From IMG/VR virus record IMGVR_UViG_3300046318_000144, positions 20,770 to 84,769 of that record: a stretch of 64,000 nucleotides of DNA. The stretch is one strand, 5' to 3'. This document shows positions 40,500-59,187 of this stretch, piece by piece. The translations under genes and the position numbers were made by a program. Origin of the DNA: a virus. The notes beneath the pieces are model-generated. The model ran no database searches and was not told where the DNA came from. It was given only the letters and a program-made list of their open reading frames with translations. Numbering within the stretch: position 1 is the stretch's first letter; each line of letters opens with the position of its first letter.

Positions 40500-42497
40500 T
40501 TAGTACTCTACAGCAGCTGCGGTAGCGCCACCAGTGGTGTCGCGAAGTGCTGCAGCAACACCGTTAACCGAGATGCTTGAGGTGATCTTGAGAGACTCAA
40601 TACCAACCTTAGCCACGTTCTCGAAGGTCTCAACGAACATCTTGTAGTCGTTGGTGCCAACCAGTGACGAGTCACGGATGATACCAAGGTCAAGAGTTCC
40701 ACCGTCAAGGAACAAGAATGTTCCCTCGGCGAAGAGATACCAGCTGAATGTGTCTGGGAACTCAAGCAGACCAGTTGCACCCTGAGCACCGAAGTAGTTC
40801 AGGTCTGGAGAAGCAACGAGTGAAACGTTGCTGTGCGATAGGTAGCCGTCAATCTCAGCCTTCGATACTGACAGAGTACCATCACCAGGCATAGCCAGGG
40901 TGAGGTCAGCTGCCATTGCATCGTATACCCACTGAGGAACAATAGCCTTCAGCTGAGTAGTTGCAGAGATGCGGTGACGTGAGCGGTAAGCAACTGCAGC
41001 ACGACGGATCTGTACTAGGAAGTCACGACCGAAACCGATAAGTGACGAAGTAGTAACAGCGGTTGAAGCGTCACCAATCTTGGTAAGAAGGTTTACTTCA
41101 GCCTCGCGTGCGTGCTGTACAAGAGCTAGCTCGTTGTGACGAGCAATCAACTCTGGGTAAGCACGAGTCATCAAGTTACCGAACTGGAGCTGTAGGGTTA
41201 CAGCGTCAGTTGAAACAGTCTGCTCTGCAGCAGCTGAAACGGCGAGTGATGACTTAGTTGCTGTATCAGGGTCTGCGTCAACTGCAGCAGTCCAGATACC
41301 AACGGCGTCAGCGTAGTCACCCGAAGCAAAGCTTGGAGGAGTTACGAAGCGGATACCGCCACGGTCAGCCTGGAAGCGAGGGAGTGAGTCACGGATTGGA
41401 CGCTCGGTGGTTGAACCAAGACCGAAGATGTCATACTTAACCTCGAAAGGTGCAGCGTGACCACCAGAAGCAACAAGTGCTTCCTGGCCAGAAACGGCAC
41501 TAATCTTCAGCTGGTTTGCCTCTGAATCGGTTGTCAGAGTGCGTGACTCTGGGAACTGAGTGGTGATAGATGCAACAATGTGCTGCTCTCCATCTCCACC
41601 GTTGACACGACGAAGCGAGTGGATACGCTTTTCCATAGCCGAAGCTACTTCGTTCATGTCGTTAATTGTGCTTCCCGCTGTGTAACCAGGGATGTCAGCA
41701 CCAGCAGTAATTGCAACTGGGGCCTCTGTTACCTGAATTACAGGCTGACGGTCAGCTGGAGCCTCGAAAGGCTGTTCTGCTGCGGCGGTCACGGTTGCCT
41801 GCTCTTCCTGCTCTTCTGGAGCAATAGTGTTTTCTTGGGTTGATGCCTCTGAGCCTTCAACAGCTTCTGCTGCAGTTTCTGAAGTTTCTTCGGCGGAGAA
41901 TTCTGCCACTGTGGCAGATGCCTCGGTTGATTCTTCAGTAGATTCCTCTACTGCGTCTTCTGGGTCGCTAGTCGACAGTTCTGATCCGTCTTCTTCGATT
42001 GTTGATGCTGTTTCAGTTTCCGAAGCGAAAGCCTTTTTAGGTTCCTTCTCTTCTTCTTCTTGGGTCTCTCCGATTTCCTCTTCAGTGGTCTCGGGCTCTT
42101 GGCCTTCGATCTCTGCAGGAGCTTCCTCTACTGGAGCTGCCTCTTCAGGCATCTCTTCAGTAGGGGTCATTTCCTCTGCAGGAGTTTCCTCTTCTGGGGT
42201 CATATCGGCTAGTTCCTCTCCATCAGTTGCGACGTCTTCGGTGCTTTCGCCCTTAACGCGTGAGATAGCCTCAGCAGCCTTGGCAGCTAGCTCTGCAGCT
42301 AGTGCCTCGCGGCGTGAAAGCTCACCTCGCACTGTGTCAAGTGCATTAGCAAGTGACGTCATAGCATCAACCGTCTCAGGAGTCGGCTCTTCGCCTTCGA
42401 CCGATTCAAACTCGCTAACGATCTGTGACTGAAGTTCGCCGACTTGTTCGTCGGTTAGCTCCGCCATAGCGTCAAGCTGGGTATTGATGTGGTCCAC
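40500..42497 (-). CDS. Major capsid (hexamer) protein with N-terminal acidic scaffold region
   Basis: Long Glu-rich N-terminus; ALVASGG..AP...YD, LP.F...RGGIRF, GN...RAYPELI, LDLG.IRDS.L...ND; strong AAGGAGG RBS, GTG start. Confidence 0.9.
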   Translation of the reverse strand: MDHINTQLDAMAELTDEQVGELQSQIVSEFESVEGEEPTPETVDAMTSLANALDTVRGELSRREALAAELAAKAAEAISRVKGESTEDVATDGEELADMTPEEETPAEEMTPTEEMPEEAAPVEEAPAEIEGQEPETTEEEIGETQEEEEKEPKKAFASETETASTIEEDGSELSTSDPEDAVEESTEESTEASATVAEFSAEETSETAAEAVEGSEASTQENTIAPEEQEEQATVTAAAEQPFEAPADRQPVIQVTEAPVAITAGADIPGYTAGSTINDMNEVASAMEKRIHSLRRVNGGDGEQHIVASITTQFPESRTLTTDSEANQLKISAVSGQEALVASGGHAAPFEVKYDIFGLGSTTERPIRDSLPRFQADRGGIRFVTPPSFASGDYADAVGIWTAAVDADPDTATKSSLAVSAAAEQTVSTDAVTLQLQFGNLMTRAYPELIARHNELALVQHAREAEVNLLTKIGDASTAVTTSSLIGFGRDFLVQIRRAAVAYRSRHRISATTQLKAIVPQWVYDAMAADLTLAMPGDGTLSVSKAEIDGYLSHSNVSLVASPDLNYFGAQGATGLLEFPDTFSWYLFAEGTFLFLDGGTLDLGIIRDSSLVGTNDYKMFVETFENVAKVGIESLKITSSISVNGVAAALRDTTGGATAAAVEY

Positions 42498-42606
42498 TGT
42501 ACCTCCTTAGGCCAGTTAATTTAATAAACGCGATTTACGTTTATTAGGTGAACAGTCAAGGCTGAGGGACTCTACGCTCGAGGCGCGAGGCGCTCCACCT
42601 ATCATA

Positions 42607-42625
42607 ATTGTACCTTACTTTTTAG
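42607..42625 (-). promoter_or_regulatory. Putative late promoter for the major capsid gene
   Basis: CTAAAAAGTAAGGTACAAT, nearly identical to the element at 56063-56081. Confidence 0.55.
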
Positions 42626-45600
42626 GTAAGGAGTCGGAGCAGTTTGCTCATCTCAGATTGAACTTCACCCTGAGAGTAAACATCTGCTCCAGACATGTAG
42701 GATTTCAGATTAGCGGTGGCAACATCTGCATCCTCTTTACCGATCTTGTCTTCGACTCTAGAAATCATCTGATCGATGAGATCCTTAAGTCCCGACGGTA
42801 GATCGCTAAATCTTAGTTTTTGCGCTTCCTGACCAAAAGGTAGTGGTAGGTTGGCAATTACACGGCCCAGTTCGCGAGCAGTGTTTTGGACATTCTCCAA
42901 AGCCTTAGGATTAAGTGCTTTACTATCCAAACGGTCAATCATTCCGAGTAGCTCGGAGCTAGCCTTCGCTGAGTCAACATAGTTTCCAGCAAACTCCATA
43001 TCTTCAGCAGCCTGAACCTTATTAAGAGCATCCTGTAGACCAGCAACACCTAGGTCTTGCTTTAGACGAGCGAGAACTTTACGGTACTTACCCTTAGCAT
43101 CACGAGGCTGAGTCACACCAGAGATGTACTTGGTACGACCCTCTTCGTCGTAGGCATCCTTAGCAGTAGTCTTACCAGCTTTAATGTCTTCAGCTAGTTT
43201 GATCTCTTCTTCAGTCTGCTTGTCAGCTTCTATTTTCGCTTCTTCAAGCTTCTTAAGATCTTCTTCAGATATTTGGTCATCAGGACCCGCTGCAGTGAGG
43301 CTAGAGATTCTAGAACGCATGCTAGCAATCATTGCCTCTGCATCCATAGAGCCAGCTGCCTTCCAGTTTTCTGGGATAAGGTCAGCCTTACCTAGAGCAC
43401 GAGCACGCTTGCGAATGTGTGTACGAACCTTTGCACGATCTTTAGGAGTTGATCGACCATATGCCTTAATAGCATTCTTTAGGTCTGACTCGTTACGGAT
43501 TGGGTAAGAACCATCTGGAAGAGCGTGACCCTTTTCAGCTAGATCCTTACGCTCTTCTTCCGAGATAGATGCAAGCTCTGCAACAGCAGATGCCACTAGA
43601 GCACGCTCTCTCAGTTCCTCTGCCTTAGCTGCAGCAGCTGTAATAGCGTATGTACGGGCTGCTTTCTTAGCATCCTTAATACGAGAACGTAGGTCTGGAG
43701 CGTTAGAAGCCAGTTCCGACAAGTTCTGGGCACGGATAGCTAAAGTAGTGAAGGCTTGGCTTCTAAGGATAGCCATATCCTGAGCACCAGCAGCCACAAG
43801 AGCCATAATCTTTCCAGATGCAACTAGAGCACGAGCAATTGGGAATCCTGGAACGTTAACCTGACATACAGCAACTAGCTCTAGTGAGCCACCGATTGGA
43901 CGCCAGTCACCAGAAGGAGCAGATGCACGTAGGGCACGAATCTGAGCCTCGTTAGCATCTGGGCGTAGTGAACCAGCTACCCAAATACCGTACTCGTCTT
44001 CACCAGCATGAACATCAGCGATAGCAGATGCAGTGTCGTCGTAGTGCTTAGCAGCCTGAGCAGCATCCGCACGCAACGATGCGTGTCCACCAGCGAGGGT
44101 TAGCTGACCAACTGGAACATCTCGTCCCGCATCAGTACGGCAAACGCCAGTGTGGAAGTAAGCATACTTGCTACGTGAGCGAGGAGGCTTAGTTGCGCTA
44201 GGCATACCAATGTGGTTTACATGCCATGCAGCAATGTGACCATAGATACGACCACTAGGGTCTACAGTCAGTGGTGTTGCCTTGCCAAGGTTTGGGTTAT
44301 TGAACCACTCGTCTGGTGGAGTCATTGGAATAGCTGACTCTAAGAATCCAGAACCAGAAGCGGTTAAAGCTTCAGCTGTTGCGAAAGAATCGAACGACTC
44401 TTCCTCATAGACTCCGTCTTCTGGAATCAATGTGTCCTCCTGGTCTCCCGCATTGTTTTCATCAATATTGATGACGCATTCTTGGAATGCTGGCTTAGCT
44501 ACAATTGTAGCAGCCATTACACGGGCGTGATTTATGATGAGTTTTTGCTTGCCCATTTCGGTTTCTTTTTTATCTAATTCCGAAGCGGTGTCGTCTTTAT
44601 GATTCTCTTCAGTTGCCTCAAACTGATCTAGATCAGCAGAAACTCCACGAATAAATCCGTGTCTGACTAGTCGTTCTGCTTCCCTACCGTAAGGCCCAGT
44701 ATCAAATACACCACGAGCATTACCAATGCCACCGTCGATACGCTCTACGTAATCAATTCGACCAACTACTACAGATCCTTCGTGACCGTCACCAGTCTTA
44801 ATCTGCCACAGTAGTGGTAGTGGTAATTCACGAATCTCTATAGATTCGTTATTGAATTTTCTTCCGTCTCCAGATTCAACATTCTCTGGTAGAAGTAGTG
44901 GAATGGTGAAAGCTGAACCATAACCCATTGGGATAGCACCAGCAGTTATGGCAAATCTAGAACGTGCAACATCTGCAGTCGCAGTTAGAACTGCCTTAGA
45001 GATCATTGCTTCATCAAAAGCCTGTTCTGACTCAAACATTCCAAATGCTCGATTGTTTCTACGTCCAGGATTCATCCTGCTTCCAGTGTAAACACCAGTA
45101 GCATCCTTGTGACGGAGCTGGCAGTAACCCTTAGCACGAACACCCATGTACTTAGATAGGTGGCGAACGCAACGCTTCCAGTCGCCAGGAGTTCCCCAGC
45201 GGATTTTAGCAGCACCCTTGCCACGAGTCCAATACTGGCGAAGTTCCTCTGCATTACCACGGTTACGGTCTAAACCACCAGCAGCAATTAGTGCTTGGAA
45301 TTCATCATCTCCACACTTAGCTAACTCCTCTAGAGCATCTACTATCTCTAGGTCTGGAGTCCAAGATCCCTCATAGAGATCATCTTCCTCTGAGTGGATA
45401 TCTTCGATAGGCATAAGCATATCTTTGTCAGTAATATGGGTAGGCTCACCAATGTTCTCGCCCCACACTTCTTCCATTAGGAACTCTTCTGCCCCTAAGT
45501 TACGGTGTGATTTATCAAGCTTAGCGTGGGTAGATGTGTACATACCCAATGCGTCCTTGTGGCGAAGCTGGCAGTAGCCCTTCGCTCTAATACCAAGATA

Positions 45601-47592
45601 TTTACTTAGGTGACGAACGCAACGCTTCCAGTCTCCTGGCTGGCCCCAACGAATCTTAGCTGCACCCTTACCAACTGTCCAGTAGCGGCGAAGCTGCTCT
45701 GCTCTACCTCTATTACGGTCAACTCCACCTGCAGCGGTAATTGGATTACCGTACAAGAAGTTTAGGATGTAGTCAGTAGTTAGGATAGACGCTGTTACGT
45801 TCTTAATACCATCAACCTGCTGAAGAATGTTATTTAGGATGGTGTCATCCAGCTTTACAACAGGAGGAGGGGTAGCTGACTTTAGGTCAAGCAGAACCTG
45901 AGAATCTTCTACCCACTTGCCATCTTTTCTAACGTAAGTTATTGGTTCTGTAGTAGTTATGGTTTTAGGGACAATAGCTACTAAGTCCATAACTGCCTGA
46001 TTGTCGTCAGGAGATACGATAGCTAAGTACTTTGGTGGGACGTCTGATGTTTTAGGTGTTAGTTGCTTTTCTGGAGCAGCAGCTACAACTGATTCAATCG
46101 AATAGGTAGATTTTGACCTAGGCTTGTATTTGTTACGCTCGCTGGCTACCCATGAAGGCCAGTTGTTGAGCATCTCATGTAGCTGCTCTTTAGGCAGCTG
46201 AGGTAGCGTACCTGGGAGGTGCGCGATAGGGCTGTTAATAGGAGTTCTTGGCTCTCCCAGAATCCCTGAAGTATCTAGTGGCTTGGTAAAGTCCTGAGCT
46301 GGAGTTTGCGAGGTTTCCTCAAAGCTGTCCTCAGCCTGAGTTTGCTTGGCTGGTACAGCAATTTGTGTACCATTATCAAGCTTTACCTGAACATTACCTG
46401 TAGCCTTATCGACGCCAGTAATTTCTCCTCTACCGTTATTGCCATCTTTACCGACAACTACACGGCTTCCTGTAGAAGCAAATCTTCCATTAGCATCTCT
46501 TAGAGCACCCTTAGCGATGTTAGAACGCTCTTCAGGAGTGTACTCTCCGTCACCAGCCTGGGTAGTCTTCGGAGCTGTAGAGCCAGCAGCAGTAACCGAG
46601 TCAACTAGGTTCCAGTCTTCTTCAGCAAAAGCATTTACAACCAAAGCTGCTTCTTCAGGATCGATCTCGTCGATAGATACGTTAGAGTATGGCCTCTCCT
46701 GGAATAGTGCAGATACAACAGCAGCAGACGCTGGGTCTACGATGTAGTGGTCCTTTTCTACATTGTCATATGGGTCGTCTAAAGCTTTGTCATAGGTGTA
46801 GATATCTCCATCTACGTGACCTAAGTCATCCCAAGCGCAGTCGTCCCAGACGTAAACCTGACCATCCATGTCAATCTTGTAGAGGCGGTCAACTCCAGAA
46901 CCATCTAGCCTTATACGAATTAAAAATTCTGGACCATGTTCTGGGTCTAGTTCATAAGCAACTTTAAAAGAATTAATGTCGGAGTCATAGCCTTCATGTA
47001 TAGCTTCTGGCTCACCCTGCGGAATGATCAAGTAAGCATCTGCAGTTACAGGCTTCTTGTCTTCCCTGTCAACAATAGACTTAGCCCAACGCCATGCGGC
47101 ATCTCCACCCCATAGAGCCCAAGCAATGCGACCATTCGAGGGGAAGTTATCTTCCCCAGGAGTCCAGCCTTTACCCTTTTTATCAACTTCATGACGAGGG
47201 AAATAGCGAGCAATATGGCGGACTTTCTTTAAACCAATCTGACCACCTTCGGCAAGAATACGAGCAGTATTCATACCTACAGGAGTGCCACCACGGTGGT
47301 GCTCCTTGTGCCACTTAAGGGCTTTTCTAGCTTCGACAACTACACCATCTGGAATAGTATACATACGGCCAGCATCAGCTGTTAAAGCAATATTAGATAG
47401 AGAGTTTAGAGCAGCATCAGCAAGCTGAATGGTGTCAGTGTCTATGTCGTCTGAGGTAGACCACTCTTCACTTGTGTAGCTCGAAAGAGCTCCACTTTCA
47501 ACGACCATCGAGAGGTCGGTATTGACAAGGACAGCTTTTTCCCCGCTAGAGAAAAGAGCTACTGAACCTCTACTACCTAAATAGTCAGTCAT
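42622..47592 (-). CDS. Multidomain capsid maturation (prohead) protease polyprotein
   Basis: Immediately upstream of the MCP; protease core ESGDGR...PLPLLWQ...H...VVGRID...GVSADLD; GRIYGHIAAW domain; ALPDGSYPI domain; duplicated RYW..GKGAAKIRWG domain. Confidence 0.8.
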   Translation of the reverse strand: MTDYLGSRGSVALFSSGEKAVLVNTDLSMVVESGALSSYTSEEWSTSDDIDTDTIQLADAALNSLSNIALTADAGRMYTIPDGVVVEARKALKWHKEHHRGGTPVGMNTARILAEGGQIGLKKVRHIARYFPRHEVDKKGKGWTPGEDNFPSNGRIAWALWGGDAAWRWAKSIVDREDKKPVTADAYLIIPQGEPEAIHEGYDSDINSFKVAYELDPEHGPEFLIRIRLDGSGVDRLYKIDMDGQVYVWDDCAWDDLGHVDGDIYTYDKALDDPYDNVEKDHYIVDPASAAVVSALFQERPYSNVSIDEIDPEEAALVVNAFAEEDWNLVDSVTAAGSTAPKTTQAGDGEYTPEERSNIAKGALRDANGRFASTGSRVVVGKDGNNGRGEITGVDKATGNVQVKLDNGTQIAVPAKQTQAEDSFEETSQTPAQDFTKPLDTSGILGEPRTPINSPIAHLPGTLPQLPKEQLHEMLNNWPSWVASERNKYKPRSKSTYSIESVVAAAPEKQLTPKTSDVPPKYLAIVSPDDNQAVMDLVAIVPKTITTTEPITYVRKDGKWVEDSQVLLDLKSATPPPVVKLDDTILNNILQQVDGIKNVTASILTTDYILNFLYGNPITAAGGVDRNRGRAEQLRRYWTVGKGAAKIRWGQPGDWKRCVRHLSKYLGIRAKGYCQLRHKDALGMYTSTHAKLDKSHRNLGAEEFLMEEVWGENIGEPTHITDKDMLMPIEDIHSEEDDLYEGSWTPDLEIVDALEELAKCGDDEFQALIAAGGLDRNRGNAEELRQYWTRGKGAAKIRWGTPGDWKRCVRHLSKYMGVRAKGYCQLRHKDATGVYTGSRMNPGRRNNRAFGMFESEQAFDEAMISKAVLTATADVARSRFAITAGAIPMGYGSAFTIPLLLPENVESGDGRKFNNESIEIRELPLPLLWQIKTGDGHEGSVVVGRIDYVERIDGGIGNARGVFDTGPYGREAERLVRHGFIRGVSADLDQFEATEENHKDDTASELDKKETEMGKQKLIINHARVMAATIVAKPAFQECVINIDENNAGDQEDTLIPEDGVYEEESFDSFATAEALTASGSGFLESAIPMTPPDEWFNNPNLGKATPLTVDPSGRIYGHIAAWHVNHIGMPSATKPPRSRSKYAYFHTGVCRTDAGRDVPVGQLTLAGGHASLRADAAQAAKHYDDTASAIADVHAGEDEYGIWVAGSLRPDANEAQIRALRASAPSGDWRPIGGSLELVAVCQVNVPGFPIARALVASGKIMALVAAGAQDMAILRSQAFTTLAIRAQNLSELASNAPDLRSRIKDAKKAARTYAITAAAAKAEELRERALVASAVAELASISEEERKDLAEKGHALPDGSYPIRNESDLKNAIKAYGRSTPKDRAKVRTHIRKRARALGKADLIPENWKAAGSMDAEAMIASMRSRISSLTAAGPDDQISEEDLKKLEEAKIEADKQTEEEIKLAEDIKAGKTTAKDAYDEEGRTKYISGVTQPRDAKGKYRKVLARLKQDLGVAGLQDALNKVQAAEDMEFAGNYVDSAKASSELLGMIDRLDSKALNPKALENVQNTARELGRVIANLPLPFGQEAQKLRFSDLPSGLKDLIDQMISRVEDKIGKEDADVATANLKSYMSGADVYSQGEVQSEMSKLLRLLT
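45085..45741 (-). repeat. Two ~69-aa near-identical domains within the protease polyprotein
   Basis: 45535-45741 and 45085-45291 both encode AAGG.DRNRG.AE.LR.YWT.GKGAAKIRWG.PGDWKRCVRHLSKY.G.RAKGYCQLRHKDA.G.YT. Confidence 0.95.
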
Positions 47593-47598
47593 TTACTA

Positions 47599-47997
47599 CT
47601 AAACCGCCTTAAAGTCTTCCTCTGTAGGGTAGTCATCTTCTGGTGCTTCGCCATTGAAAATGCAATACTTTTTTAGATCTTCTTCTGTCAAGGTGCCATC
47701 AGCATATTTTTGATAAACAATTGACTTATCATTCTCATCGAATGCTTCATCATTATTCCAATCAATTAGGTATGATGCATATTCATTTCTATACATGAAT
47801 AATCTGTCACCATCACCATTGTCAACTGGCACCCAGGCGTCAGCTTCAGGATCATATTCTGAAGTAACGAAAGGGCCGTAGGATATGATTGTCTCGATTT
47901 TACGAGACTCTGGCTCTAAATAGATATATACGCTAGTATTAAATGTTTTGAGCTCAGTGTTTGGCTTATCACCTGGTAGAAGATAATTTTTTGTCAT
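47599..47997 (-). CDS. Small acidic hypothetical protein
   Basis: 132 aa, AGAGG RBS, Asp/Glu-rich. Confidence 0.8.
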   Translation of the reverse strand: MTKNYLLPGDKPNTELKTFNTSVYIYLEPESRKIETIISYGPFVTSEYDPEADAWVPVDNGDGDRLFMYRNEYASYLIDWNNDEAFDENDKSIVYQKYADGTLTEEDLKKYCIFNGEAPEDDYPTEEDFKAV

Positions 47998-48017
47998 TAG
48001 TTAACCTCTTTACTATA

Positions 48018-48392
48018 CTACCGTACAATTGGATTGTCGTTTTTATCATAGTTGCTCGCTGTGTCAAGACCAAAGTCTGTCATAGTAGGAGCTTCACCGA
48101 TAACTTTGATGTCTTTGGTACCATACAAAGTGTATAGAGCCCATACGACAGTATTTAGGTCCTTAGTTGTAGCGTCAAAGAATGGACCTTCAGGGGTAGC
48201 TGCAATTTCTCCAGACGGTCCCATTGCAAATATGAAGTCACGGACGCTTTGAGCAATAACATCAGCAGATCCTCTAGAACCATACAGGTAATCAACTTCT
48301 TCAGCCTGTGGGTTCCAGTTAACTTTTGAACCATTAACTACGAAAGTCACTGGCTCTAGGTAGATACCTAGAACCTCTTCTCTATCTTCCAT
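48018..48392 (-). CDS. Small acidic hypothetical protein coupled to the giant gene
   Basis: 124 aa; TAATG overlap with the giant gene stop; GAGGAG RBS. Confidence 0.8.
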   Translation of the reverse strand: MEDREEVLGIYLEPVTFVVNGSKVNWNPQAEEVDYLYGSRGSADVIAQSVRDFIFAMGPSGEIAATPEGPFFDATTKDLNTVVWALYTLYGTKDIKVIGEAPTMTDFGLDTASNYDKNDNPIVR

Positions 48393-51300: not shown

Positions 51301-54300
51301 CTAGACCAGCAGTACTCTTACCTGGCTCACCAAATAGCGACTTCAAGCTCTTGTGTGCCGAGTAGTGCCAGTATTCCTGAGACTCTCCAGTTTCGGTATT
51401 AGTTACCTTTACCTTGACTCTCCAGCTATTATTCTTGGCTTCTTTAAATGAAAGCTCTAGAGTGTGCTCGTCCCCAGCACCAGGTCCAAACTCATCTAAG
51501 AATGTTTCACGGTAGTAGGTTACACTTCCGTCTTCTTGAACCTTTGCTCCTGGGACAATCTTTTCCAAGATGAGCTTAATGTCCTTAGATGCATCACCAG
51601 AACCTCCACCCCACTTGTCTAGTACCTCTTGGATATTTTCATTTCTACCAATATTAGAGGTTCCATCATCACGGCGGTCCTCTGGGACAGCCTTCCATAG
51701 AGCTGATGGCTCATTAGCTGGTGGCTGAGGGGTAGCAGTCTTCTTAGAGCTAATCTTACGAGTTCTCTTAGGAACTAGTCTCTTAACTTTGTTGCCACTG
51801 TTATAGCGTCGTAGGCCATGCTCTAAGGCAAGCTCGTTGATTTGACCATTTTCAATAGCATCGATTAGGTCTCCAGTAGCATTTAGAGCGTCGAAGATCT
51901 CCTCACCAGATGCACCATCCTCGATCATCTTAGCGATAGAGCCGTCCTTGTCAGCTGGACCAACAATCTTCTTTAGACGGTCCTTATTTACCTCTTTACC
52001 ACGACTAACCAGCGCTGGGAAGTCCGCAGCAAGTTCATCATAGTTTTTATAAACACGGCTACCTAGTACGTCTTCATTGCTACGAGCACGTAGGGTAATA
52101 CTTCCATCTTTATTCTCTTTGATGTTCCAACGGTTTCCACCAAATACACCAGTGTACCCGCCAGGAGTACTGAGCTGTTCAATCCAGTCTTTCAGGAACT
52201 TATGTGTACGCTTGTCGCCTCCAGGACCAGACTTAGCTACTGGTGCAGTTTCTGGTACATCAGTGTCAAAACTAATCTCGCCATTATCATCCATAGCATA
52301 TAGAGCATTAAGTACTCTATCTTCCTTAGGAATAGCGGCTTCTTTAGCAGCTGTCTGCTCCAGAATCTGAGACTGCTTCTTTTCCTCTGAATCAACAACA
52401 TCCATGTTGAAGTCAGGCTCGCGCTGCATTTCTTTATTAGCACGAGCGAGACCGTCTTTGCCCTGGTAATTTTCAGTCCACTTTAGTGACCCCATGAATA
52501 GGCGTTTCTTAGCACGTGTAAGTGCTACATAGGCCAAATCTAGTTCTTGGTCGTCAGGGAATGCTACTGCACCAGTTTCAGGGTCAGTAACCTTAGGGGA
52601 ACCAAAGTCATCACCAATAATGATGTTGTCCCACTCAAGACCCTTTGCTCTGTGAGCAGTTGTAACCAATACATCGAAGTCTTCGGTATCTCCAGTGTCT
52701 AGTTTGAATAGGTTAGCAATATTGTTTAGGTAGAGCTCTCTATCAGAGTCTTCATCAATAACTAGCTCGTACTTGGTATTACCATCTGCATTTCTCTTAG
52801 TCCTCCAAGTAGGTAAGTCCCCATCTGGTTTTAGGATACTAGGGTCATTTTTGCTGAATGAGTTTCCAGAACCATTATTCTTACCTCCGATAACTAGATC
52901 ACGGAAGGTGGCACCTTTTAGCCCAGTAAGCTCAGCGTCTAAATTGCCATCAAGAATGAGCTTGTTTCCATAAACTTCCCACTTAATACCAGCAAACTCT
53001 CCGCTATCACCATCTGCAGCAGATAGGTTAGTAATATCGGCAAGGTCAATGTGACGCTCTGGCTGAACGATAACTCTAGACATAATACTCTCTAGAGGTT
53101 TAAGGTCTTCCTCAAACTTAGTTACCAGTCTTGCCCAGTAGGCGGCTTTTCCAGTAGGGTTCCTATTCATCTCGGCGAATAGGCTTTCCTTACTGTAGAT
53201 ATCTTTAAGGTCTGGGTGTACTACGGATGGTTGCTTGTCTCGTGAGTCTTTATCTTCTAGAATCCACTTAAGGTTTTCTAGTGCATCATCAACATCCTGC
53301 TTAAGTACAGAAGTTACAGCTACTTTTTTGCCACGATCGAGGAACTTCTTCATCTGGGCAAATCCACCCATGTTATTTCTAACGACAACGGCAGTAGTTC
53401 CGTCTAGACCATCTATGTTGTCAGAGGTTAAGATTTCTCCCTCGCCGTAGCCTTCGTTAGTTGACTTTAGACGGTACTTCTCACCAAGCAAGTTCAAAAG
53501 TGAGTTGGCAGCAGTAGAGATTTTTGTACCAAAACGACGGGTAGTGCTTAGGTTTAGAGCTGCTTCAGATAGACCATCAGAGTAACGTCCAATAGCATTC
53601 TCTGCTCCCATGAATCGGTAAATAGACTGAGCATTGTCACCAACCATAGATAGCTTGATGTTTCCAGCCCTGACGTTGTCCATTAGGACTTTTTCAATGG
53701 CAGGAACCGTGTCCTGAGCCTCATCCATGAATACATGGGTAATTGGTCTACCATTGTGCTTAAAGTCAGCGATATTAGGGTTAGTTAGTGTCCACATCTT
53801 GGTAGCAACTGCTGGAGAAATCGCAGTCGCACCCTTAACTACAGCCATCTTAGGCTTAGGATTACCCTGAGCATCTACGGCTGGCTGACCAGTCTTTTTA
53901 TCAATAGATTGTTCATAGATCGGGTCACCCTTTTCATCAAAAAGCTTGACACCATCTTCGTTTTTAGCCTGAACCTTCTCCCACACAGGAACTGAGGTTA
54001 GGTCCTCCCAGTATTTATTAGCAGATTCTACAATCTTTGCCTTTGCTTTTGCCTCATCTTCTGGTGTCATGTCTGGCCCATTGATGTGGTCGAAGTTCAC
54101 ATGCTGTGGGCCAATCTTCTCGTCAGCACTGTTGCTGTAATTTTCTACAGCATTAATTACTAACTGACCGTGAGCCGCTGGGCCTTGGTTCTTGCCCTTG
54201 ATGTTTATATCGTCTAGTTCTAAGAATTTAGCTATAGCATTAGCACCACTCTTGTGGAAAGTCTCGATAGAGCGGTAGCGGGCTCCCATAGCTCTAGAGT

Positions 54301-56017
54301 CTTTACCAAATGCTGAGCGTAGGAATTTGTAACCAAACTGAGAAGCAGTGGTATTAGCTAATGTATTATCTGGAACCTTAGTCTTTGCTTCGTTAGCATT
54401 CTTTCGGTTGAACTGTAGGTATAGGACTCTAGCCTCTGGCTTGAGACGCTTAAGAGCTTTAGTAATTGCAACGAATACAGTGGTCTTACCAGCACCAGCA
54501 CCAGCAAGTACGGCAGTGTCTTTATCAGCTAGAACAATAGCTGCTGCAATATCACTCTGCTCCTGGCTTGGCTCGAAGCCGAAGTCCTCGGTCCAGTCTT
54601 CTGGCTTTGCCATCTTAGCTAGTTCTTCACTACTAATCTTGTCTCGAACTTCTTGTTCTGGACCAGTAAATGTGGCAACAGTTGCAGGGTCTACTTCTTC
54701 AGGATTGTCATCCTCTTCAGAAGCAACTACCTTAGGTTTCTTTTCAGGCTTAGCAGCTTTTTCAACCTTAGCCTTAGGGGCACGCTTTGGTTTCTCTGGA
54801 GTGGCAGGAGCTTCTGGAGTTACCTCGGCTGCAGGTGTAGCGTCAGGGGCAGCATCCTCATCAAAGACGATCTCATCTGGGTCAAAGTCAAGAGCATCAT
54901 TAAGTACCTGGTCTACATTTACATCTTCACCAGCACTTGCTTTTTCAAAAGCTTTAGCAGTGGCTTTCTCGAGAGCCTTAGCCTTTTTAGCCTCTGACTC
55001 GGCTGCCCACTGGTCTTGGCGTAGCTTTCTAAACTCATCTGGGGTTACTGGAGTTATACCATTTTCCTGAGTAGGGATGGTACCTTTATATGCACCAGGA
55101 CCTCTACCAGAGTCAATACTGTCAATGAGCTCGTATGGAGAACCTAGAGGTCTACCCTCTTCGTCCTGCTCGCTTTCGATGTATCTACCTTCATAGAGGT
55201 AACCATCACCACGAACGTGAGCCTGGACTAGCTTTCCAGTTCTAGGCATGCTGAGGAACAGCTCATCGCCTTCTTCTACATTTTCTAGCCAATTCTTGCT
55301 GGCAACAACAATTCTCTTAGGCTTCTTTGCCTTCTCTGTTTTAGCCTTAGCAGGTGCTTTAGCTGGAGCTTCTGCAGTAGGAGCCTCTGGAGCTTTCTTC
55401 TCTCCACCAGCAAAGTCATCAGGATTTACACCAGACTCTTCTAGGAGCTTCTTTGTTTCCTCTGGGTTAGTAGTCTCGTAACCGCCAGGCATCTTAGCGA
55501 TAGGTGACTCTTCGCGACCAGCCTTCTCGGCAGCACGCTCTTCTTCTGTAAGCTCGCCCTTAGCTAGACGCTCATCTTCAGGTGTAATGTCAGTGCGAGG
55601 AATCTCGTCAACATAAGGAACTTCATTGTCTGCAAGTTCATTTATTTCATTACCGAAGATATCTTTCTTAGGCCCTGTAGAGAGTCCCTGCTTCTCTAGA
55701 TATTCCTTAGGAATAAGACCTTCGAACTGCTCCATATTGTTGGAGTCAACTTCATAGACACCACTCTTGATACCCTTGTCATCCTGGCCCTGTACAAGAA
55801 TACGACCCTTACCTGGCTTACCAGCAGGACCGACGTACACACCGTGAATGGTAGCAGCAATTAAGCGACCACGGATTCGGATCTTGAATAGGGTCCCGCG
55901 ACCCATCTCCATCCACTGGCCGTATTTATCGCGAGGCTGAATTCTCCAGAAGCCTCTGTTGGCACCATCATTAGTACCAATCATGGCTAGCAGGGGGGAG
56001 AGTTGATCTTCAGACAT
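48392..56017 (-). CDS. Giant (~2541 aa) polyvalent protein: UvrD-like SF1 helicase, SH3-like domains and C-terminal HExxH zincin metallopeptidase
   Basis: AGAGAGKTT, DEAQD, VGDNAQSIYRFMGA, TRRFG, TAHRAKGLEWD, YVALTRAK; HELTH at 48959-48973; ATG at 56017 has a GAAGGA RBS (track start 56038). Confidence 0.88.
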   Translation of the reverse strand: MSEDQLSPLLAMIGTNDGANRGFWRIQPRDKYGQWMEMGRGTLFKIRIRGRLIAATIHGVYVGPAGKPGKGRILVQGQDDKGIKSGVYEVDSNNMEQFEGLIPKEYLEKQGLSTGPKKDIFGNEINELADNEVPYVDEIPRTDITPEDERLAKGELTEEERAAEKAGREESPIAKMPGGYETTNPEETKKLLEESGVNPDDFAGGEKKAPEAPTAEAPAKAPAKAKTEKAKKPKRIVVASKNWLENVEEGDELFLSMPRTGKLVQAHVRGDGYLYEGRYIESEQDEEGRPLGSPYELIDSIDSGRGPGAYKGTIPTQENGITPVTPDEFRKLRQDQWAAESEAKKAKALEKATAKAFEKASAGEDVNVDQVLNDALDFDPDEIVFDEDAAPDATPAAEVTPEAPATPEKPKRAPKAKVEKAAKPEKKPKVVASEEDDNPEEVDPATVATFTGPEQEVRDKISSEELAKMAKPEDWTEDFGFEPSQEQSDIAAAIVLADKDTAVLAGAGAGKTTVFVAITKALKRLKPEARVLYLQFNRKNANEAKTKVPDNTLANTTASQFGYKFLRSAFGKDSRAMGARYRSIETFHKSGANAIAKFLELDDINIKGKNQGPAAHGQLVINAVENYSNSADEKIGPQHVNFDHINGPDMTPEDEAKAKAKIVESANKYWEDLTSVPVWEKVQAKNEDGVKLFDEKGDPIYEQSIDKKTGQPAVDAQGNPKPKMAVVKGATAISPAVATKMWTLTNPNIADFKHNGRPITHVFMDEAQDTVPAIEKVLMDNVRAGNIKLSMVGDNAQSIYRFMGAENAIGRYSDGLSEAALNLSTTRRFGTKISTAANSLLNLLGEKYRLKSTNEGYGEGEILTSDNIDGLDGTTAVVVRNNMGGFAQMKKFLDRGKKVAVTSVLKQDVDDALENLKWILEDKDSRDKQPSVVHPDLKDIYSKESLFAEMNRNPTGKAAYWARLVTKFEEDLKPLESIMSRVIVQPERHIDLADITNLSAADGDSGEFAGIKWEVYGNKLILDGNLDAELTGLKGATFRDLVIGGKNNGSGNSFSKNDPSILKPDGDLPTWRTKRNADGNTKYELVIDEDSDRELYLNNIANLFKLDTGDTEDFDVLVTTAHRAKGLEWDNIIIGDDFGSPKVTDPETGAVAFPDDQELDLAYVALTRAKKRLFMGSLKWTENYQGKDGLARANKEMQREPDFNMDVVDSEEKKQSQILEQTAAKEAAIPKEDRVLNALYAMDDNGEISFDTDVPETAPVAKSGPGGDKRTHKFLKDWIEQLSTPGGYTGVFGGNRWNIKENKDGSITLRARSNEDVLGSRVYKNYDELAADFPALVSRGKEVNKDRLKKIVGPADKDGSIAKMIEDGASGEEIFDALNATGDLIDAIENGQINELALEHGLRRYNSGNKVKRLVPKRTRKISSKKTATPQPPANEPSALWKAVPEDRRDDGTSNIGRNENIQEVLDKWGGGSGDASKDIKLILEKIVPGAKVQEDGSVTYYRETFLDEFGPGAGDEHTLELSFKEAKNNSWRVKVKVTNTETGESQEYWHYSAHKSLKSLFGEPGKSTAGLESLISKITRDPAKTKYKSNPKEDKKYRENYGGIIGEIELLRAGRYDRLLQMAKLGLGKSDTTLKLRTPEEETSLALYGRAQVTHTDGKNFLRQKRSEVGSILESLDSGDYAEARSLLATHLRSLPDTQAARDTARDVLRGIMEQRYVNSSKRELDQMMEQFNGYLDSNMPAQDDITTHRPHTDKNGQDLQVGDRVIIKNNVGETAVGTVVRKLKEHTPSINSGEGEEGEEGDEEQQSYVYGDYVKVEFANGSVLPMASKKMTKTAPDTKPTSSAPWLYEDDLTFFRAEQQPDKYRVDRASGQIFDLDTNTVIYKGVGTESYGQTEVAENLAENQKIYNDTGDLLGQVVGKPKSGTARDGSRVTAVKYRIPGGNGATDTLVVKEGSKVNTSPLKPEVSNRDAIPSPAATTDVAKRAAALGISSGQQGRKPSKTISKNSADNTPENAEAIKPISGKNVENTWAVAPTEEATNIKNEVVAMGEEVWSGVPERMKDILRQKGYDIPDDATYDDIARAALDSLAKVGNDYAVARRAALDLEENTINGIKDSKSGVSGVFNEMRAAGYVKTEDGKEVIDVAKLSKDLRKAGVKGLPYYLEDEDSDFSAKKPMLAFAYKALTDPAVTEEAKKVYFDQYSKDKAQERAKATDYLDDVHQAERVAAKEALEAAGVQFDNVSLDEFDGLLVTAGKKAPLNSKSTIKAAEALSEAFKHMPRSNILKMIEHLKENNLKLEVKAGVKRGHFAPLKNGKGYEIHLSNRRGKDRRIAAKEEGLNPATDVALHELTHFTQKLDPNQRAIEHAWLYDRAVVDAGTDNERLVPIINLNKGGSEQALAIKGMSQPYMAKAYPFLNRKAFLNPNDEASEVSTMAMQDLFTNPGIASGAYGLSVMGLDPETGEDRLYPGAFYDPETGKYYRSSSKKTEIEGIKGVFGRNRDEGTDFNVKHLATGMLLALNDWSPTEGFGPGNAVVPNEEK

Positions 56018-56062
56018 GTAAATCCTTCTGTATAGCAAAAAGCTCTAGAGTATCTAGTTAGA

Positions 56063-56081
56063 ATTTTACCTGTCTTTTTAG
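56063..56081 (-). promoter_or_regulatory. Putative late promoter for the giant gene
   Basis: CTAAAAAGACAGGTAAAAT in the intergenic gap. Confidence 0.55.
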
Positions 56082-56091
56082 ATAGTGATTA

Positions 56092-56916
56092 TTACGACGC
56101 GTCTAGATCCTTGATAGAAGTGAGGACATCCTTGAACTTGTTCCAGGCTTCGTGCTGCTTCTTGCTACCGATCTCTACATCATTCTTGGTAATGAAGTCG
56201 TAAGCATCAGTGTTCCACTGCTCGACGTCCTTGAGAGATGTCAATACTTCAAATGATGTAGCTCCAGAGTCGATCATCTGACCGATAGAGCCATCAGCAT
56301 CGTATTTAGCAATCTTCTTCTTAGCGATAGCCTTAAGGTCAGGAGCTACTTCTGGGTCAACCAGACCATTGAGAGACTCCATAAGTGCCTCGAATTTAAA
56401 AACAGCAATTTTTAGGTCGTAGTTCTCTTCCTTGATGGTGTCCTTAGTGGAGAGTAGGTGCTCTTGCTCTTTGAAGTACTTATTACCTTTCAAGTAGTTA
56501 GTGATAGATTCTCTAGAATCTCCACGGTTAACCATACGAGTTAGTTTCCCACCCTTATCAAAAGGATTAACTAGAGTATCTGGGTCAGTGTATCCGTAAA
56601 CCTCTTGAAGGAAGTTATCTCTAGAAGTATTTAGTTCTGAAGCAGCAAGCATTTCTTCTAGAGACTTGCTCTGCTCTGTAGTGGCATCTGCCAACTCTGG
56701 AGAGATAGTTCCAGAAGATACTAGAGCATCAAGACGAGCCTGAGTATGAATATACTCGATGCTGTATCTATCGCTTAGTAGAGCTTCAACAATAAGGGAA
56801 GACTCTCGCTCATCGAGGGAGCTAAATTCCTGAAGTAGCTTGCGAGAAAGTTCTGAGTCTTTGTAAATAGCAAAAACTCTTTTTTCTAGCTTTTTGATTT
56901 TAGACTGATCTAGCAT
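56092..56916 (-). CDS. Helical hypothetical protein with an internal duplication shared with the giant protein
   Basis: AAGGAG RBS; two copies of D..G....M...G.....I/V...L. Confidence 0.8.
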   Translation of the reverse strand: MLDQSKIKKLEKRVFAIYKDSELSRKLLQEFSSLDERESSLIVEALLSDRYSIEYIHTQARLDALVSSGTISPELADATTEQSKSLEEMLAASELNTSRDNFLQEVYGYTDPDTLVNPFDKGGKLTRMVNRGDSRESITNYLKGNKYFKEQEHLLSTKDTIKEENYDLKIAVFKFEALMESLNGLVDPEVAPDLKAIAKKKIAKYDADGSIGQMIDSGATSFEVLTSLKDVEQWNTDAYDFITKNDVEIGSKKQHEAWNKFKDVLTSIKDLDAS

Positions 56917-56931
56917 TGAGACTCCTTAGTA

Positions 56932-57396
56932 TTAGCGAATGCCTAGTGTTGCACGTAGCTGCCAGTTCCACTTCTGATGAGCATCAATGCGCTCAGCTAG
57001 GAAGTTAGCAATGCCTTGCTGATTTACAGCGTTAGCTTCTTGGAAGGCTTCATCGAGACGTCCAAGTACAGCTTTATTGTTGTCGTACAGAGACTGAACC
57101 ATAAGCATCCCGTTACCGTCCGAGATTCTAGGCTGGTCGCATATGCATGACATGTCAATAAAGTCTTGTAGAAGATACGGGGCATCAAAGCCAAGCTTGA
57201 GGATATCCTCAGCTAGCGGGTCTATAGCACTGTCAACATCTTCATAGATTTCTGAGAAGAATCCATGCAGCTGGGTGAACTCTACTCCAGAGACGTTCCA
57301 GTGGTATCCCTGAGCTAGAGATTTAAAAATAACTAAGTCGCTAAGAACTTTAGCTAGCTTCTCGGCTAATTGGACGTTTCCATCAACTTCGTGCAT
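56932..57396 (-). CDS. dps: Dps/ferritin-like DNA-protecting protein
   Basis: GYHWNVSG.EF.QLH.FF..IY.....AID.LAE; C-terminal HQK..WQL. Confidence 0.92.
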   Translation of the reverse strand: MHEVDGNVQLAEKLAKVLSDLVIFKSLAQGYHWNVSGVEFTQLHGFFSEIYEDVDSAIDPLAEDILKLGFDAPYLLQDFIDMSCICDQPRISDGNGMLMVQSLYDNNKAVLGRLDEAFQEANAVNQQGIANFLAERIDAHQKWNWQLRATLGIR

Positions 57397-57405
57397 TTGA
57401 TTTCC

Positions 57406-59187
57406 TTATTGGGTTGGTTCCGCTAGAGGTGCAGCTGGAGCACCAGATGGTTGGATTGGTTCAGCAGGGGTTGGTTCCGCTAGAGGTGCAGCTGGAGCAG
57501 CACCCTCTGGTGCAGGCTGACCACCTTCAAGGATCTGCTGAATGTCTTCTGGAACTGGAGCACCACTTTCCTGCTGAGCTATATCACGAGTCAGGTTCAT
57601 AACATCTGGAGCGACTGCCTTAAGCATGCTCTCTGTCAGCTCTGGAGTGATCATACCCTTAGAGATAATTAGTCGAAGGGCTAGCTCTACTGGAGTAGGA
57701 GCATCTGCTTCAGAGAAGCCATGAGCCTTACGCCAAGTGTCGTAAGATACCGCCATCTTCTCGAACCCTGAGTCAGCGTCTGCAGCTCGGTCGTTACGGG
57801 TGGCAACCTGCGATGGGTCATACCATATGACTAGACGATCTACGTCAGCCTCTGGGTACCCATTAGCAGTCAGATATGGACGCAGGTATACAACTGTAAG
57901 AGCATCAGCAATCAGAAGCATCAGCGGTTCGATGTGTGCCTTGTAGAGTGACTCGTCAATCTGTAGAGCATTTGAGTACTTAACGTTGGCAAGACCTGTA
58001 ACGATGTCTTTTGGAACATCAAGACCCTGCATGATACGCTCTAGAACTCGGTCTGCACGCTGAGCCAAGGCAGGGTCAAAGCTACGCTCAAACTTAAACT
58101 GCTTAATCTTGTCGCCAAGCTCTGCAGGACCACGAATAATAAGTGGAACTACAGCGCTCGCCGAGTCTTCATCCTTAATAGGAGTAGTCATAGCATCGAT
58201 GAGCTGGTCTTCAAAGTCATCAGCAGCTTCTTCGGTGTTGTAGACCTCGTTGTACTCGCCATTTTCATCGTATGGATAGTCTGGGTCTGGAGACGCTGCT
58301 ACTGAAAGACCGTCAGGCAGGTACAGAGCACCCGCATTGAGGCGAGAACGGGCCGTAGCGCGGAAAGTACGGTTCAATAGCAGTAGTTCCGCACAAAGGT
58401 CCAAGAGGCCGCGTAGCGAGCTGTCAGCCTCTTGCGAATATCGTGGGTGAGCCTTCCAGATTCGACCAACAAACGCCCCCTTAGGGAGTCTGATTGCATC
58501 TGGGTTAGTGTTAGACATCATTGATGAGCCACCGCCACCGACCTCGCGGCGTGGGTTGATGATGTAGTTACCCTTTTGATCAACCTGAAGTTCATCAGTC
58601 GAGCGGATATCCCAAGTCTCTGGAAGTCCTGAACCAATACGTTCTGGAATCTGTACTAGGTAGCACTCGCCAGTAACCTGCAAGTTTAGAGCAGCGTCCT
58701 TAAGAAGACCAGCCTGGCCTCCATAAGCAGAGCTTAGACGTGCAAGTGCACGTTCAGCTGCCTGAGCAAGTCTTTCGTCAATCTTCTCTGATTTACGAAC
58801 TGAGACGGGAGCTTCAGCTGCATTATCAACTACCGCAGAGTAGAGACGAATGCGTGATACAACAGATGCTACTAAGTTGAAGGCGTACTTGACTTCACCA
58901 ATTGAGTCGTAATACTCCCAGGCCTCTGACTGCCAACTTGAAGATGCTGACTGTCTACGATTTTTGAAGATTGCAGCTTCGCCCTTGTCATCAAGTTTGA
59001 TCTGAGCAGCTGCGGCAGTAAGTGGGCGTGGTGTATTGAAGGCCAAGGCTTGTGGGTACGTAATACCAAACGAATCTAGCGAAGGTGGAGTTAGAGATTG
59101 TGCAGAAACAGGAGCGGATGCACGAATACCTGCAGAACCAACTGCTGGTCGTGCTCTGTTATTTTTTTGGCGCTTGAATATGCCCAA
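57406..59187 (-). CDS. Portal protein
   Basis: Downstream of terminase; WQSEAWEYYD.IGE, L.V.GE.YL, R.W..HP.....ADS, SAVVP, GLD.P...V.G motifs of cluster-B-like portals. Confidence 0.88.
   Translation of the reverse strand: MGIFKRQKNNRARPAVGSAGIRASAPVSAQSLTPPSLDSFGITYPQALAFNTPRPLTAAAAQIKLDDKGEAAIFKNRRQSASSSWQSEAWEYYDSIGEVKYAFNLVASVVSRIRLYSAVVDNAAEAPVSVRKSEKIDERLAQAAERALARLSSAYGGQAGLLKDAALNLQVTGECYLVQIPERIGSGLPETWDIRSTDELQVDQKGNYIINPRREVGGGGSSMMSNTNPDAIRLPKGAFVGRIWKAHPRYSQEADSSLRGLLDLCAELLLLNRTFRATARSRLNAGALYLPDGLSVAASPDPDYPYDENGEYNEVYNTEEAADDFEDQLIDAMTTPIKDEDSASAVVPLIIRGPAELGDKIKQFKFERSFDPALAQRADRVLERIMQGLDVPKDIVTGLANVKYSNALQIDESLYKAHIEPLMLLIADALTVVYLRPYLTANGYPEADVDRLVIWYDPSQVATRNDRAADADSGFEKMAVSYDTWRKAHGFSEADAPTPVELALRLIISKGMITPELTESMLKAVAPDVMNLTRDIAQQESGAPVPEDIQQILEGGQPAPEGAAPAAPLAEPTPAEPIQPSGAPAAPLAEPTQ
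57411..57499. repeat. 32-bp perfect direct repeat in the portal 3' end
   Basis: gggttggttccgctagaggtgcagctggagca at 57411-57442 and 57468-57499 (APAAPLAEPT twice). Confidence 0.95.

Follow-up and report, generated by a model that had tools for sequence, protein, structure and literature searches.

The head operon of a large actinobacterial siphophage raises the question of why one of its proteins carries the same short peptide motif many times. The window analysed here is a stretch of 64,000 nucleotides from the IMG/VR virus record IMGVR_UViG_3300046318_000144 (positions 20,770 to 84,769), and the protein in question is the 1656-amino-acid (aa) product of an open reading frame (ORF) on its minus strand. 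A sequence-only reading had noticed the recurrent motif [LIV]-[TVI]-A-[AGSD] in this ORF, in the major capsid protein (MCP) and near the portal N-terminus, and had proposed that it is the recognition site of the maturation protease, so that one gene would yield many small internal head proteins. The proposal was supported by the computational tests described below, which concern restriction to head proteins, location in linkers, conservation, the sites at the capsid junction and the portal leader, and natural gene splits. It has to be qualified in two respects, as the copies are not equally credible and cleavage is a prediction. The motif, in the fuller form [ASG]-[LIVM]-x-A-[ASC]-[GA], is probably the cutting site of the prohead protease, and its 1656-aa carrier a self-processed multi-domain head protein. 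The three genes concerned are:

42622-47592, minus strand: 1656-aa multi-domain head protein (putative protease polyprotein, P0001), taken from the ORF list; PHROG matches to head maturation protease and portal-fusion families
40500-42497, minus strand: MCP, 665 aa, with an N-terminal scaffold (delta) domain; phrog_777
57406-59187, minus strand: portal protein, 593 aa; phrog_776 and a weak match to Pfam Phage_portal

All 14 copies reported for the 1656-aa ORF were present with their flanking letters as quoted, and they start at residues 70, 182, 333, 502, 599, 618, 768, 882, 1076, 1256, 1265, 1317, 1332 and 1432. In global shuffles of the protein, 2.0 copies were expected (standard deviation 1.3) and none of 500 shuffles reached 14. 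When shuffling was confined to blocks of 8-40 residues, the expectation was 2.1-2.35 copies (2.35 with blocks of 8), and again 14 was never reached (0 of 2000). As both kinds of shuffle expect about two copies, neither Ala content nor local composition explains the number observed, and the possibility raised with the proposal, that Ala content alone accounts for the motif frequency, was not borne out. Codons differed between the motif sites; therefore, the motif is a signal at the protein level, and a DNA-level repeat was ruled out. Exact 2-mer and 3-mer statistics on the single protein were dominated by a duplicated domain (the RYW domain) and did not recover the degenerate motif.

Five copies were found in the MCP versus 1.3 expected (P about 0.01), and three in the portal protein versus 0.9 expected (P about 0.03-0.05). 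The long tail proteins (1138, 1261 and 1148 aa) carried 1, 0 and 1 copies, respectively, in agreement with the scarcity noticed by eye in equally long tail proteins, and a 2548-aa giant protein encoded in the same operon carried four copies versus 2.2 expected.

As the pattern had been defined on one protein, it was tested out of sample on relatives. The nearest named relatives are Actinomycetia phage DSL-LC01 (a lake metagenome assembly), with 52% identity to the 1656-aa protein, and the ~190-kb Microbacterium phages Pumpernickel, A3Wally, Cece and Big4, with 44% identity; Arthrobacter, Gordonia and Mycobacterium phages are remoter relatives, and closer uncultured relatives in IMG/VR number in the hundreds. 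A search for the protease region recovered homologues from 867 database records, which include cluster B mycobacteriophages and large Microbacterium, Arthrobacter and Gordonia phages, and the motif itself was checked in seven lineages. The gene lies between the portal and major capsid genes, in the same order in the annotated relatives examined. Site conservation was counted in an alignment of 38 full-length homologues of the 1656-aa protein, whereas enrichment by protein class was measured on the ORFs of 80 related loci, each assigned to the window protein that it matched best. Throughout, "strict" denotes [LIV]-[TVI]-A-[AGSD] and "loose" a relaxed version of it.

The excess was replicated in 89 homologous polyprotein ORFs and 80 MCPs. 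The strict 4-mer was seen 515 times in the polyprotein homologues versus 120 expected (4.3x) and 416 times in the MCPs versus 117.5 expected (3.5x), whereas the other protein classes were mostly near chance (0.3-2.0x), among them the tape measure (112 versus 118), the giant protein (8 versus 11) and a pentamer-like protein (35 versus 43). A mild excess in the major tail proteins corresponded to about one conserved copy per protein. The 6-mer [ASGP][LIV][TVI]A[AS][GA] was found 270 times in polyproteins, 138 times in MCPs, four times in tape measures and not at all elsewhere. The comparison of head and non-head proteins suggested with the proposal gave an excess in polyproteins and MCPs, with tail proteins and the giant near chance.

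The order of the residues was also informative. Among the 24 possible orderings of the four residue classes, the proposed one ranked first in the 38 homologues, with 336 matches versus 95 for the reversed order, and the next three were overlapping registers of the same extended motif. The flanks, left unspecified in the proposed pattern, were nevertheless biased, with Ala at position -1 in 41% of cases and Gly or Ala at +1 in 74%. Homologues without a strict copy usually still had [LIVM]-x-A-[ASC]-[GAS] at the aligned site, for example MVAAG, LSAAG, IQASA or LVACG, and [LIVM]-x-A-[ASC]-[GA], with its free second position, was enriched 8x in polyproteins and 3x in MCPs, with most other classes near or below chance. 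Thus, the order and enrichment of the proposed pattern held, but the true pattern is looser at its second position: the fuller form is [ASG]-[LIVM]-x-A-[ASC]-[GA], with T or V preferred at x.

The polyprotein family consists of at least nine conserved blocks separated by variable linkers. In the 38 homologues, the ten inter-domain stretches held 276 copies (13 per 1000 aa), where their composition predicts 34.7, whereas the nine conserved blocks held 42 versus 36.8 expected (1.1 per 1000 aa); the block with the protease fold had none, versus 5.1 expected. These linker boundaries agree with an AlphaFold 2 (AF2) model of residues 457-1656. When the motifs were mapped on this model, as had been proposed, 502, 882 and 1432 each fell in a short low-confidence gap flanked by confident domains, 599 and 1076 bordered or lay within longer stretches of low confidence, and 1317 and 1332 were helical. 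The sites and domains of the protein, with confidence given as the predicted local distance difference test (pLDDT), are:

47374-47385, minus strand: motif LTAD, residues 70-73, ahead of the RMYTIP domain; strict in 20/38 homologues (aligned stretch), with varying residues
47038-47049, minus strand: motif VTAD, residues 182-185; strict in 11/38, LTAS or VVAS in Microbacterium phages
46585-46596, minus strand: motif VTAA, residues 333-336; strict in 20/38 and loose in 33/38, also in Talia1610 and DSL-LC01
46078-46089, minus strand: motif VVAA, residues 502-505; in the AF2 low-pLDDT gap 492-506, between two confident domains
45787-45798, minus strand: motif VTAS, residues 599-602, closing the 507-600 domain; x-A-S-A/G kept in most homologues
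45730-45741, minus strand: motif ITAA, residues 618-621, directly 5' of RYW copy 1, a domain copy largely specific to the window
45493-45729, minus strand: RYW domain copy 1, residues 622-700; phrog_6439 type, two stretches matched
45280-45291, minus strand: motif LIAA, residues 768-771, directly before RYW copy 2
45067-45279, minus strand: RYW domain copy 2, residues 772-842; phrog_6439, alignment and AF2
44938-44949, minus strand: motif ITAG, residues 882-885, immediately before the protease fold; strict in 28/38, low-pLDDT gap 877-890
44446-44937, minus strand: protease domain 1, residues 886-1049, with the T4 gp21/herpes assemblin fold; VIA-align structure match
44356-44367, minus strand: motif LTAS, residues 1076-1079, in the linker that connects protease-like domains 1 and 2; strict in 23/38, loose in 32/38
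43828-44340, minus strand: domain 2 (GRIYGHIA domain), residues 1085-1255; phrog_18402 "head maturation protease"
43816-43827, minus strand: motif LVAS, residues 1256-1259; strict in only 4/38, x-V-A-S-G common
43789-43800, minus strand: motif LVAA, residues 1265-1268; in 38/38 homologues and in Phendrix gp72, LVAS in Vortex gp9
43588-43644, minus strand: motifs ITAA (1317-1320) and LVAS (1332-1335), in a predicted long helix; strict in 12/38 and 15/38
43288-43299, minus strand: motif LTAA, residues 1432-1435, opening the linker that leads to the C-terminal domain; low-pLDDT gap 1432-1441, strict in 19/38
42625-43131, minus strand: C-terminal helical domain, residues 1488-1656, with a conserved ...LLRLLT end; alignment and AF2

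Several copies precede recognisable domains, as first noticed: 618 and 768 the two RYW copies, 882 the gp21/assemblin-like fold, 1076 the GRIYGHIA domain and 1432 the C-terminal linker. The position of the sites in the alignment was kept while their residues changed (LTAS, IVAA and VIAS at one and the same site), which is the pattern expected of selection on the motif class. At site 768, nearly every one of the 14 displayed homologues kept A-A-G-G-x-D-R-N (two had AEG and AKG), and the two residues preceding A-A-G-G varied or were gapped.

Three observations on the same protein are added here. The RYW domain (45067-45729, minus strand), which has conserved Cys residues, occurs twice in the window and once in most relatives, with the motif plus G-G ahead of each copy. 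At site 1076, one subgroup (L020, L025, L041, L049, L063 and L066) has Cys after the invariant Ala (L-V-A-C-G), at this site only. Two peptides of the form R-D-x-x-G-[RK]-[FY] were found, RDANGRF at residue 365 (46480-46500, minus strand) and RDAKGKY at residue 1497 (43084-43104, minus strand); the latter opens the C-terminal domain, and relatives that encode this domain separately start at Q-P-R-D.

The enzyme proposed to read the motif was sought within the same protein. In the AF2 model, domain 1 (domain pLDDT 67-91) matched T4 gp21 (5jbl_B) with Z 9.8 and a root-mean-square deviation of 3.9 over 126 aligned residues, and seven different herpes assemblins with Z 7.2-9.5. The fold match begins at residue 886, one residue after ITAG882-885. 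Among 42 sequences, S985 was invariant and H937, 48 residues away, was conserved in at least 90%. Domain 2 is the part named "capsid maturation protease" by SEA-PHAGES annotators. In 40 sequences from seven lineages, it conserved G-H-I-A-x-W, G-G-H-A and S-G-D-W-R, with H1127, H1170 and S1227 invariant; these 40 sequences gave nothing above noise in Pfam or NCBIfam (E up to 1). Its AF2 model had a pLDDT below 50, and its look-alikes in the ESM Atlas were prohead proteases, which serves as a lead only. A profile-profile comparison of domains 1 and 2 detected no similarity, and for this reason domain 2 could not be shown to be a second protease of the same fold. However, domain 2 was the only protease-like domain found in the portal-to-capsid region of two Gordonia lineages (Phendrix and Tiamoceli), and as the motif persists there, domain 2 is possibly an enzyme that reads it. 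Domain 2 may read the motif alone or together with domain 1, and it may represent an unassigned family of prohead protease. The 1656-aa protein, searched as 10 segments, had no match in Pfam or NCBIfam, and PDB sequence searches with this protein, the MCP, Vortex gp12 and the 40-sequence domain-2 profile gave no usable match.

Genes that are naturally split in relatives offered another view of the module boundaries. In L009, L010/L011, L015 and L039, a new gene begins just before an L-T-P-x-T-S-D-V block, and the same block follows VVAA502 in the window. A stand-alone gene for the protease fold in L064 starts within a few residues of the ITAG882 position, and in L022, L077 and L082/L085, the C-terminal domain is a gene of its own that starts inside the linker after LTAA1432. 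Stand-alone domain-2 proteins (L008, L017 and the naturally separate gp72 of Gordonia phage Phendrix) carry the motif ~20 residues from their own N-terminus; therefore, the motif there fits the cut site of a propeptide and not a plain inter-domain linker. The three coding sequences annotated in DSL-LC01 were not used as a split, because a frameshifted stretch of the metagenome assembly seems to lie at the first junction. The interruption of the L008 and L017 genes near residue 1050 consists of overlapping frames in L008 (L008:7746-7779) and of a single in-frame stop in L017 (L017:8079-8084).

In the capsid protein, the three motifs quoted by the sequence-only reading (VTAA236, ITAG263 and LVAS341) were confirmed, and two more were detected, IVAS307 and LVAS560. 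The AF2 model of the MCP showed a helical domain at residues 1-83 (pLDDT about 90), disorder at 84-274 and an HK97-type fold from ~362; the top Foldseek matches were almost all phage capsid or encapsulin shell proteins, each of them weak (E 0.02-0.4) and none reaching 0.001. Four sites, 236, 263, 307 and 341, lie in low-confidence segments, and 341, just before the HK97 fold, is the best conserved:

41781-41792, minus strand: motif VTAA, residues 236-239, in a disordered segment; VTAA or VTAS in most of 65 MCPs
41700-41711, minus strand: motif ITAG, residues 263-266; A-ITAG-AD in 58/65 MCPs
41568-41579, minus strand: motif IVAS, residues 307-310; H-IVAS invariant in the IMG/VR set, low-pLDDT gap 297-315
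41466-41477, minus strand: motif A-LVAS-GG, residues 341-344, predicted scaffold/N-arm junction; conserved in 65/65 MCPs, low-pLDDT gap 336-361

Site 341 is in register with sequences of the type A-LTAA-G-W-C-A-P in six other actinophage lineages, cluster B mycobacteriophages among them (Megan, Taptic, Pointis, Tiamoceli, Vortex and Phendrix). At a distance of about 20 residues lies an R-P-I-R-D-S-L stretch, which resembles the start of the HK97 N-arm region, and a cut at site 341 is predicted to leave a mature subunit of ~321-322 aa. Residues 84-235 of the MCP (41793-42248, minus strand) form a long acidic stretch rich in Glu, Pro, Thr and Ala, predicted to be disordered and highly variable in length among the 65 MCPs.

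In the portal protein, the PLTAAA sequence reported near the N-terminus was found as P-LTAA-A at residue 56:

59011-59022, minus strand: motif P-LTAA-A, residues 56-59, which ends a variable N-terminal leader; strict in 52/60 portals

The non-strict homologues displayed read MTAA in the R-P-LTAA-A context. Upstream of the motif, the leader is otherwise variable in sequence and length, and in Megan, Taptic, Pointis, Tiamoceli and Vortex the motif lies 16-66 residues from the start. Two other head-operon proteins were considered as further substrates and rejected: the 291-aa pentamer-like protein has no conserved or enriched motif, and in the 2548-aa giant the motif is neither conserved nor enriched. 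If the giant is processed, a different enzyme or code would be used.

Taken at face value, these data suggest the following sequence of events. The long protein would be built into the procapsid, where the protease would then be activated. Within its own carrier, the embedded protease would cut the linkers that join the folded modules, so that about 8-10 pieces result, and it would cut the scaffold (delta) part of the MCP at four sites into pieces of about 25-240 residues. The last of these cuts, predicted at A-LVA↓S-GG (the arrow marks the bond), would create the N-arm of the ~321-aa mature subunit, and a roughly 58-residue leader would be removed from the portal protein. By analogy, the cut is placed after the invariant Ala, because assemblins cut (V/L/I)-x-A↓S/T and T4 gp21 cuts with the same spacing. 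The folded modules (about 8-20 kDa each) could stay in the head, could be ejected with the DNA, or could be lost or degraded as in HK97. It is possible, short of probable, that a single code, [LIVM]-x-Ala↓Ser/Ala-Gly/Ala, serves head maturation throughout one clade of actinobacteriophages and mirrors the specificity of assemblins, with carriers of 1500-2300 residues being dismantled in the largest members, at least eight folded proteins of unknown function being loaded per head from one gene and domain 2 perhaps being the actual enzyme.

Among the alternatives, the one that survives best, although we consider it unlikely, is that the motif is a short linear motif that is not cleaved, namely a docking peptide that binds to the procapsid interior, the portal or the scaffold and targets modules to the head. 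Restriction to head proteins and location in flexible segments would be expected equally of a head-specific binding motif, and cutting at the motif is so far a prediction. However, its positions are classical processing points, such as the point where scaffold and N-arm meet in an HK97-type MCP and the leader at the portal N-terminus; in relatives, genes of their own begin immediately past site 502 and only a few residues from 882; and its hydrophobic-x-small pattern matches the cutting pattern of the assemblin/gp21 fold found in the same protein.

A structural role is slightly less likely again. The motif (hydrophobic-x-Ala-Ser-Gly) would then cap domains or link them, would have been passed on together with the modules and would play no part in recognition, which would suit its presence inside longer conserved blocks at the capsid junction and at site 1265 and the predicted helical state of sites 1317 and 1332. 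In contrast, the motif is missing from linkers in the tail proteins and in the multi-domain giant, the variable linkers keep only the motif class while its neighbours change, and the motif is present across six lineages in portal leaders that are otherwise unconserved, at varying distances from the start. Finally, although the pattern was defined by eye on the same protein and the portal excess alone is marginal, an artefact of chance or composition in an Ala/Val/Thr-rich protein, with the pattern picked after the fact, is very improbable and was rejected by the residue-order, out-of-sample, block-shuffle and linker tests, given an excess that persisted even with 8-residue blocks and in the relatives but not in other classes, the lack of enrichment of the reversed pattern and the biased flanks.

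Several points weigh against recognition and cutting by the prohead protease, which remains the preferred explanation. No experimental cut was found in the literature for this phage or its relatives, and the mass-spectrometry tables of Rosebush virions give protein-level counts only. Domain 1 was not recognised by any curated sequence model (Pfam Peptidase_S78, S77 and S80; NCBIfam) at E up to 1. The contrast between linkers and domains is somewhat flattering because the linker boundaries were drawn with the motif positions known, and the AF2 models are weak, with a mean pLDDT of 56 for residues 457-1656 and 55 for the MCP and with 46% of the polyprotein model below pLDDT 50. The candidate cut sites are also unequal: 618 belongs to a duplicated module specific to the window, 1256 is weakly conserved, and 1317 and 1332 lie in the predicted long helix, so that these four are less certain. 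The copy at the capsid junction sits inside a longer stretch of conservation, L-x-A-A/S-G-G-W-C-A-P, and for this reason its conservation there could be structural. MCP site 560 lies within a strand of the fold and is poorly conserved, and of the two other portal copies, that at 105 is in a conserved block and the third is at 425. Not all gene splits coincide with the motif: L008 and L017 are split near residue 1050, 20-25 residues upstream of LTAS1076, where the interruptions, which resemble a frameshift or an in-frame stop, could be a sequencing error, a real split or recoding, and around residue 700, where L010 and L043 are split, the motif is absent. The giant, despite belonging to the same operon, shows no motif enrichment.

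Recurring cutting motifs in head proteins are already known, as are self-processing protease-scaffold proteins and polyvalent head proteins with embedded peptidases. T4 gp21 cuts after L/I-x-E, and the proteases of phiKZ/SPN3US-type giant phages cut after S/A/G-x-E; in both cases, a protease with the gp21/assemblin fold reads one short motif that is found repeatedly in capsid protein, portal and internal head proteins. The motif described here likewise has a hydrophobic or small residue two positions before the predicted cut. The pre-cut residue, however, is predicted to be Ala instead of Glu, the substrates are mainly one very long protease-containing protein, and the lineage is that of actinobacterial siphophages. 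The HK97 capsid protein is cut after Lys103. As in HK97 gp4/gp5, the protease gene lies between the portal and capsid genes and an N-terminal scaffold domain is predicted to be removed just before the N-arm, whereas the HK97 protease is small and separate, the scaffold part here has ~344 residues with a long acidic disordered stretch, and Pfam S78 is not matched by the protein.

The herpesvirus assemblin precursor (UL26-type protease-scaffold fusion; MEROPS S21) is similar in having the same protease fold within a longer assembly protein. Assemblins cut themselves at hydrophobic-x-Ala↓Ser/Thr within their own protease-scaffold precursor, for example at YLQA-T and VQA-S in pseudorabies virus (PMC4498786). 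The motif has the same spacing and small residues as these sites and matches the herpes-type code (V/L/I)-x-A↓S at the level of pattern. Unlike in assemblins, where the protease fold is N-terminal and there are 2-3 sites, the fold is internal here (886-1049 of 1656), with about 8-14 candidate sites, all predicted, and it is joined by a second protease-like domain and no fewer than eight further modules whose function is unknown; here it is the capsid protein that carries the fused scaffold.

Polyvalent phage proteins, as described by Iyer, Burroughs, Anand, de Souza and Aravind in 2017 (PMC5512222), are many-domain proteins whose genes lie with head genes and for which processing by an embedded peptidase was proposed; the assemblin-like peptidase is one of four peptidase types and is described as always C-terminal, and no cutting motif is given. 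The 1656-aa protein similarly combines several unrelated domains in one polypeptide within a phage head-gene neighbourhood, but its assemblin-like fold, at 886-1049, has ~600 residues after it. Effector domains (zincin peptidase, ART, kinases, nucleases and others) were not detected in the 10 segments with Pfam and NCBIfam, at HMMER sensitivity only. Vortex gp9 and Rosebush gp13 are true homologues of domains 1 and 2, and their phages carry motif copies in the portal, the protease and the MCP; unlike the protein studied here, they are half its size, have fewer sites and contain a MuF domain, which was not found here. Searches of the literature found no published processing map for proteins of this type and no published cutting site in actinobacteriophages, nor did the searchable literature yield this motif, an Ala-type specificity in a phage or its spread over a large actinophage clade, or a carrier with a central protease fold and two protease-like domains.

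Around these genes, the minus strand at 36-62 kb of the window is a phage structural operon, and the window, from a contig of 84.8 kb, carries the head module of a large actinobacterial siphophage. In transcription order, the portal gene is followed directly by a ferritin/Dps-like gene, then by a gene for a 274-aa protein and by the giant; two small ORFs separate the latter from the 1656-aa ORF, the MCP gene is next, and the tail genes come after the pentamer-like protein gene:

56932-57396, minus strand: ferritin/Dps-like gene, directly after the portal gene; Pfam PF00210, E 2e-15
48392-56038, minus strand: 2548-aa giant with a UvrD-type helicase, within the head operon
39548-40423, minus strand: 291-aa pentamer-like protein, 3' of the MCP

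The 291-aa protein aligns end to end with Vortex gp13, annotated as "major capsid pentamer protein", and hexamers and pentamers of this capsid are probably built from different subunits.

The cleavage site between delta domain and N-arm of actinobacteriophage capsid proteins has been described as not predictable (Podgorski et al., bioRxiv 10.1101/2022.09.09.507160), and the motif gives a specific prediction for it. It further predicts where the portal leader would be cut and what products would arise from the fusion proteins that hundreds of SEA-PHAGES genomes list as "capsid maturation protease", and several of these phages grow on laboratory hosts. Conserved modules without a known family, which may be packaged in the head, are marked out in the same way. 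If the prediction is true, T4 and phiKZ-like phages, with their Glu-type codes, would be joined by a third phage cutting code with a likeness to that of herpesviruses, and substrate preference as well as fold would have been retained, or found again, between phage and herpesvirus proteases.

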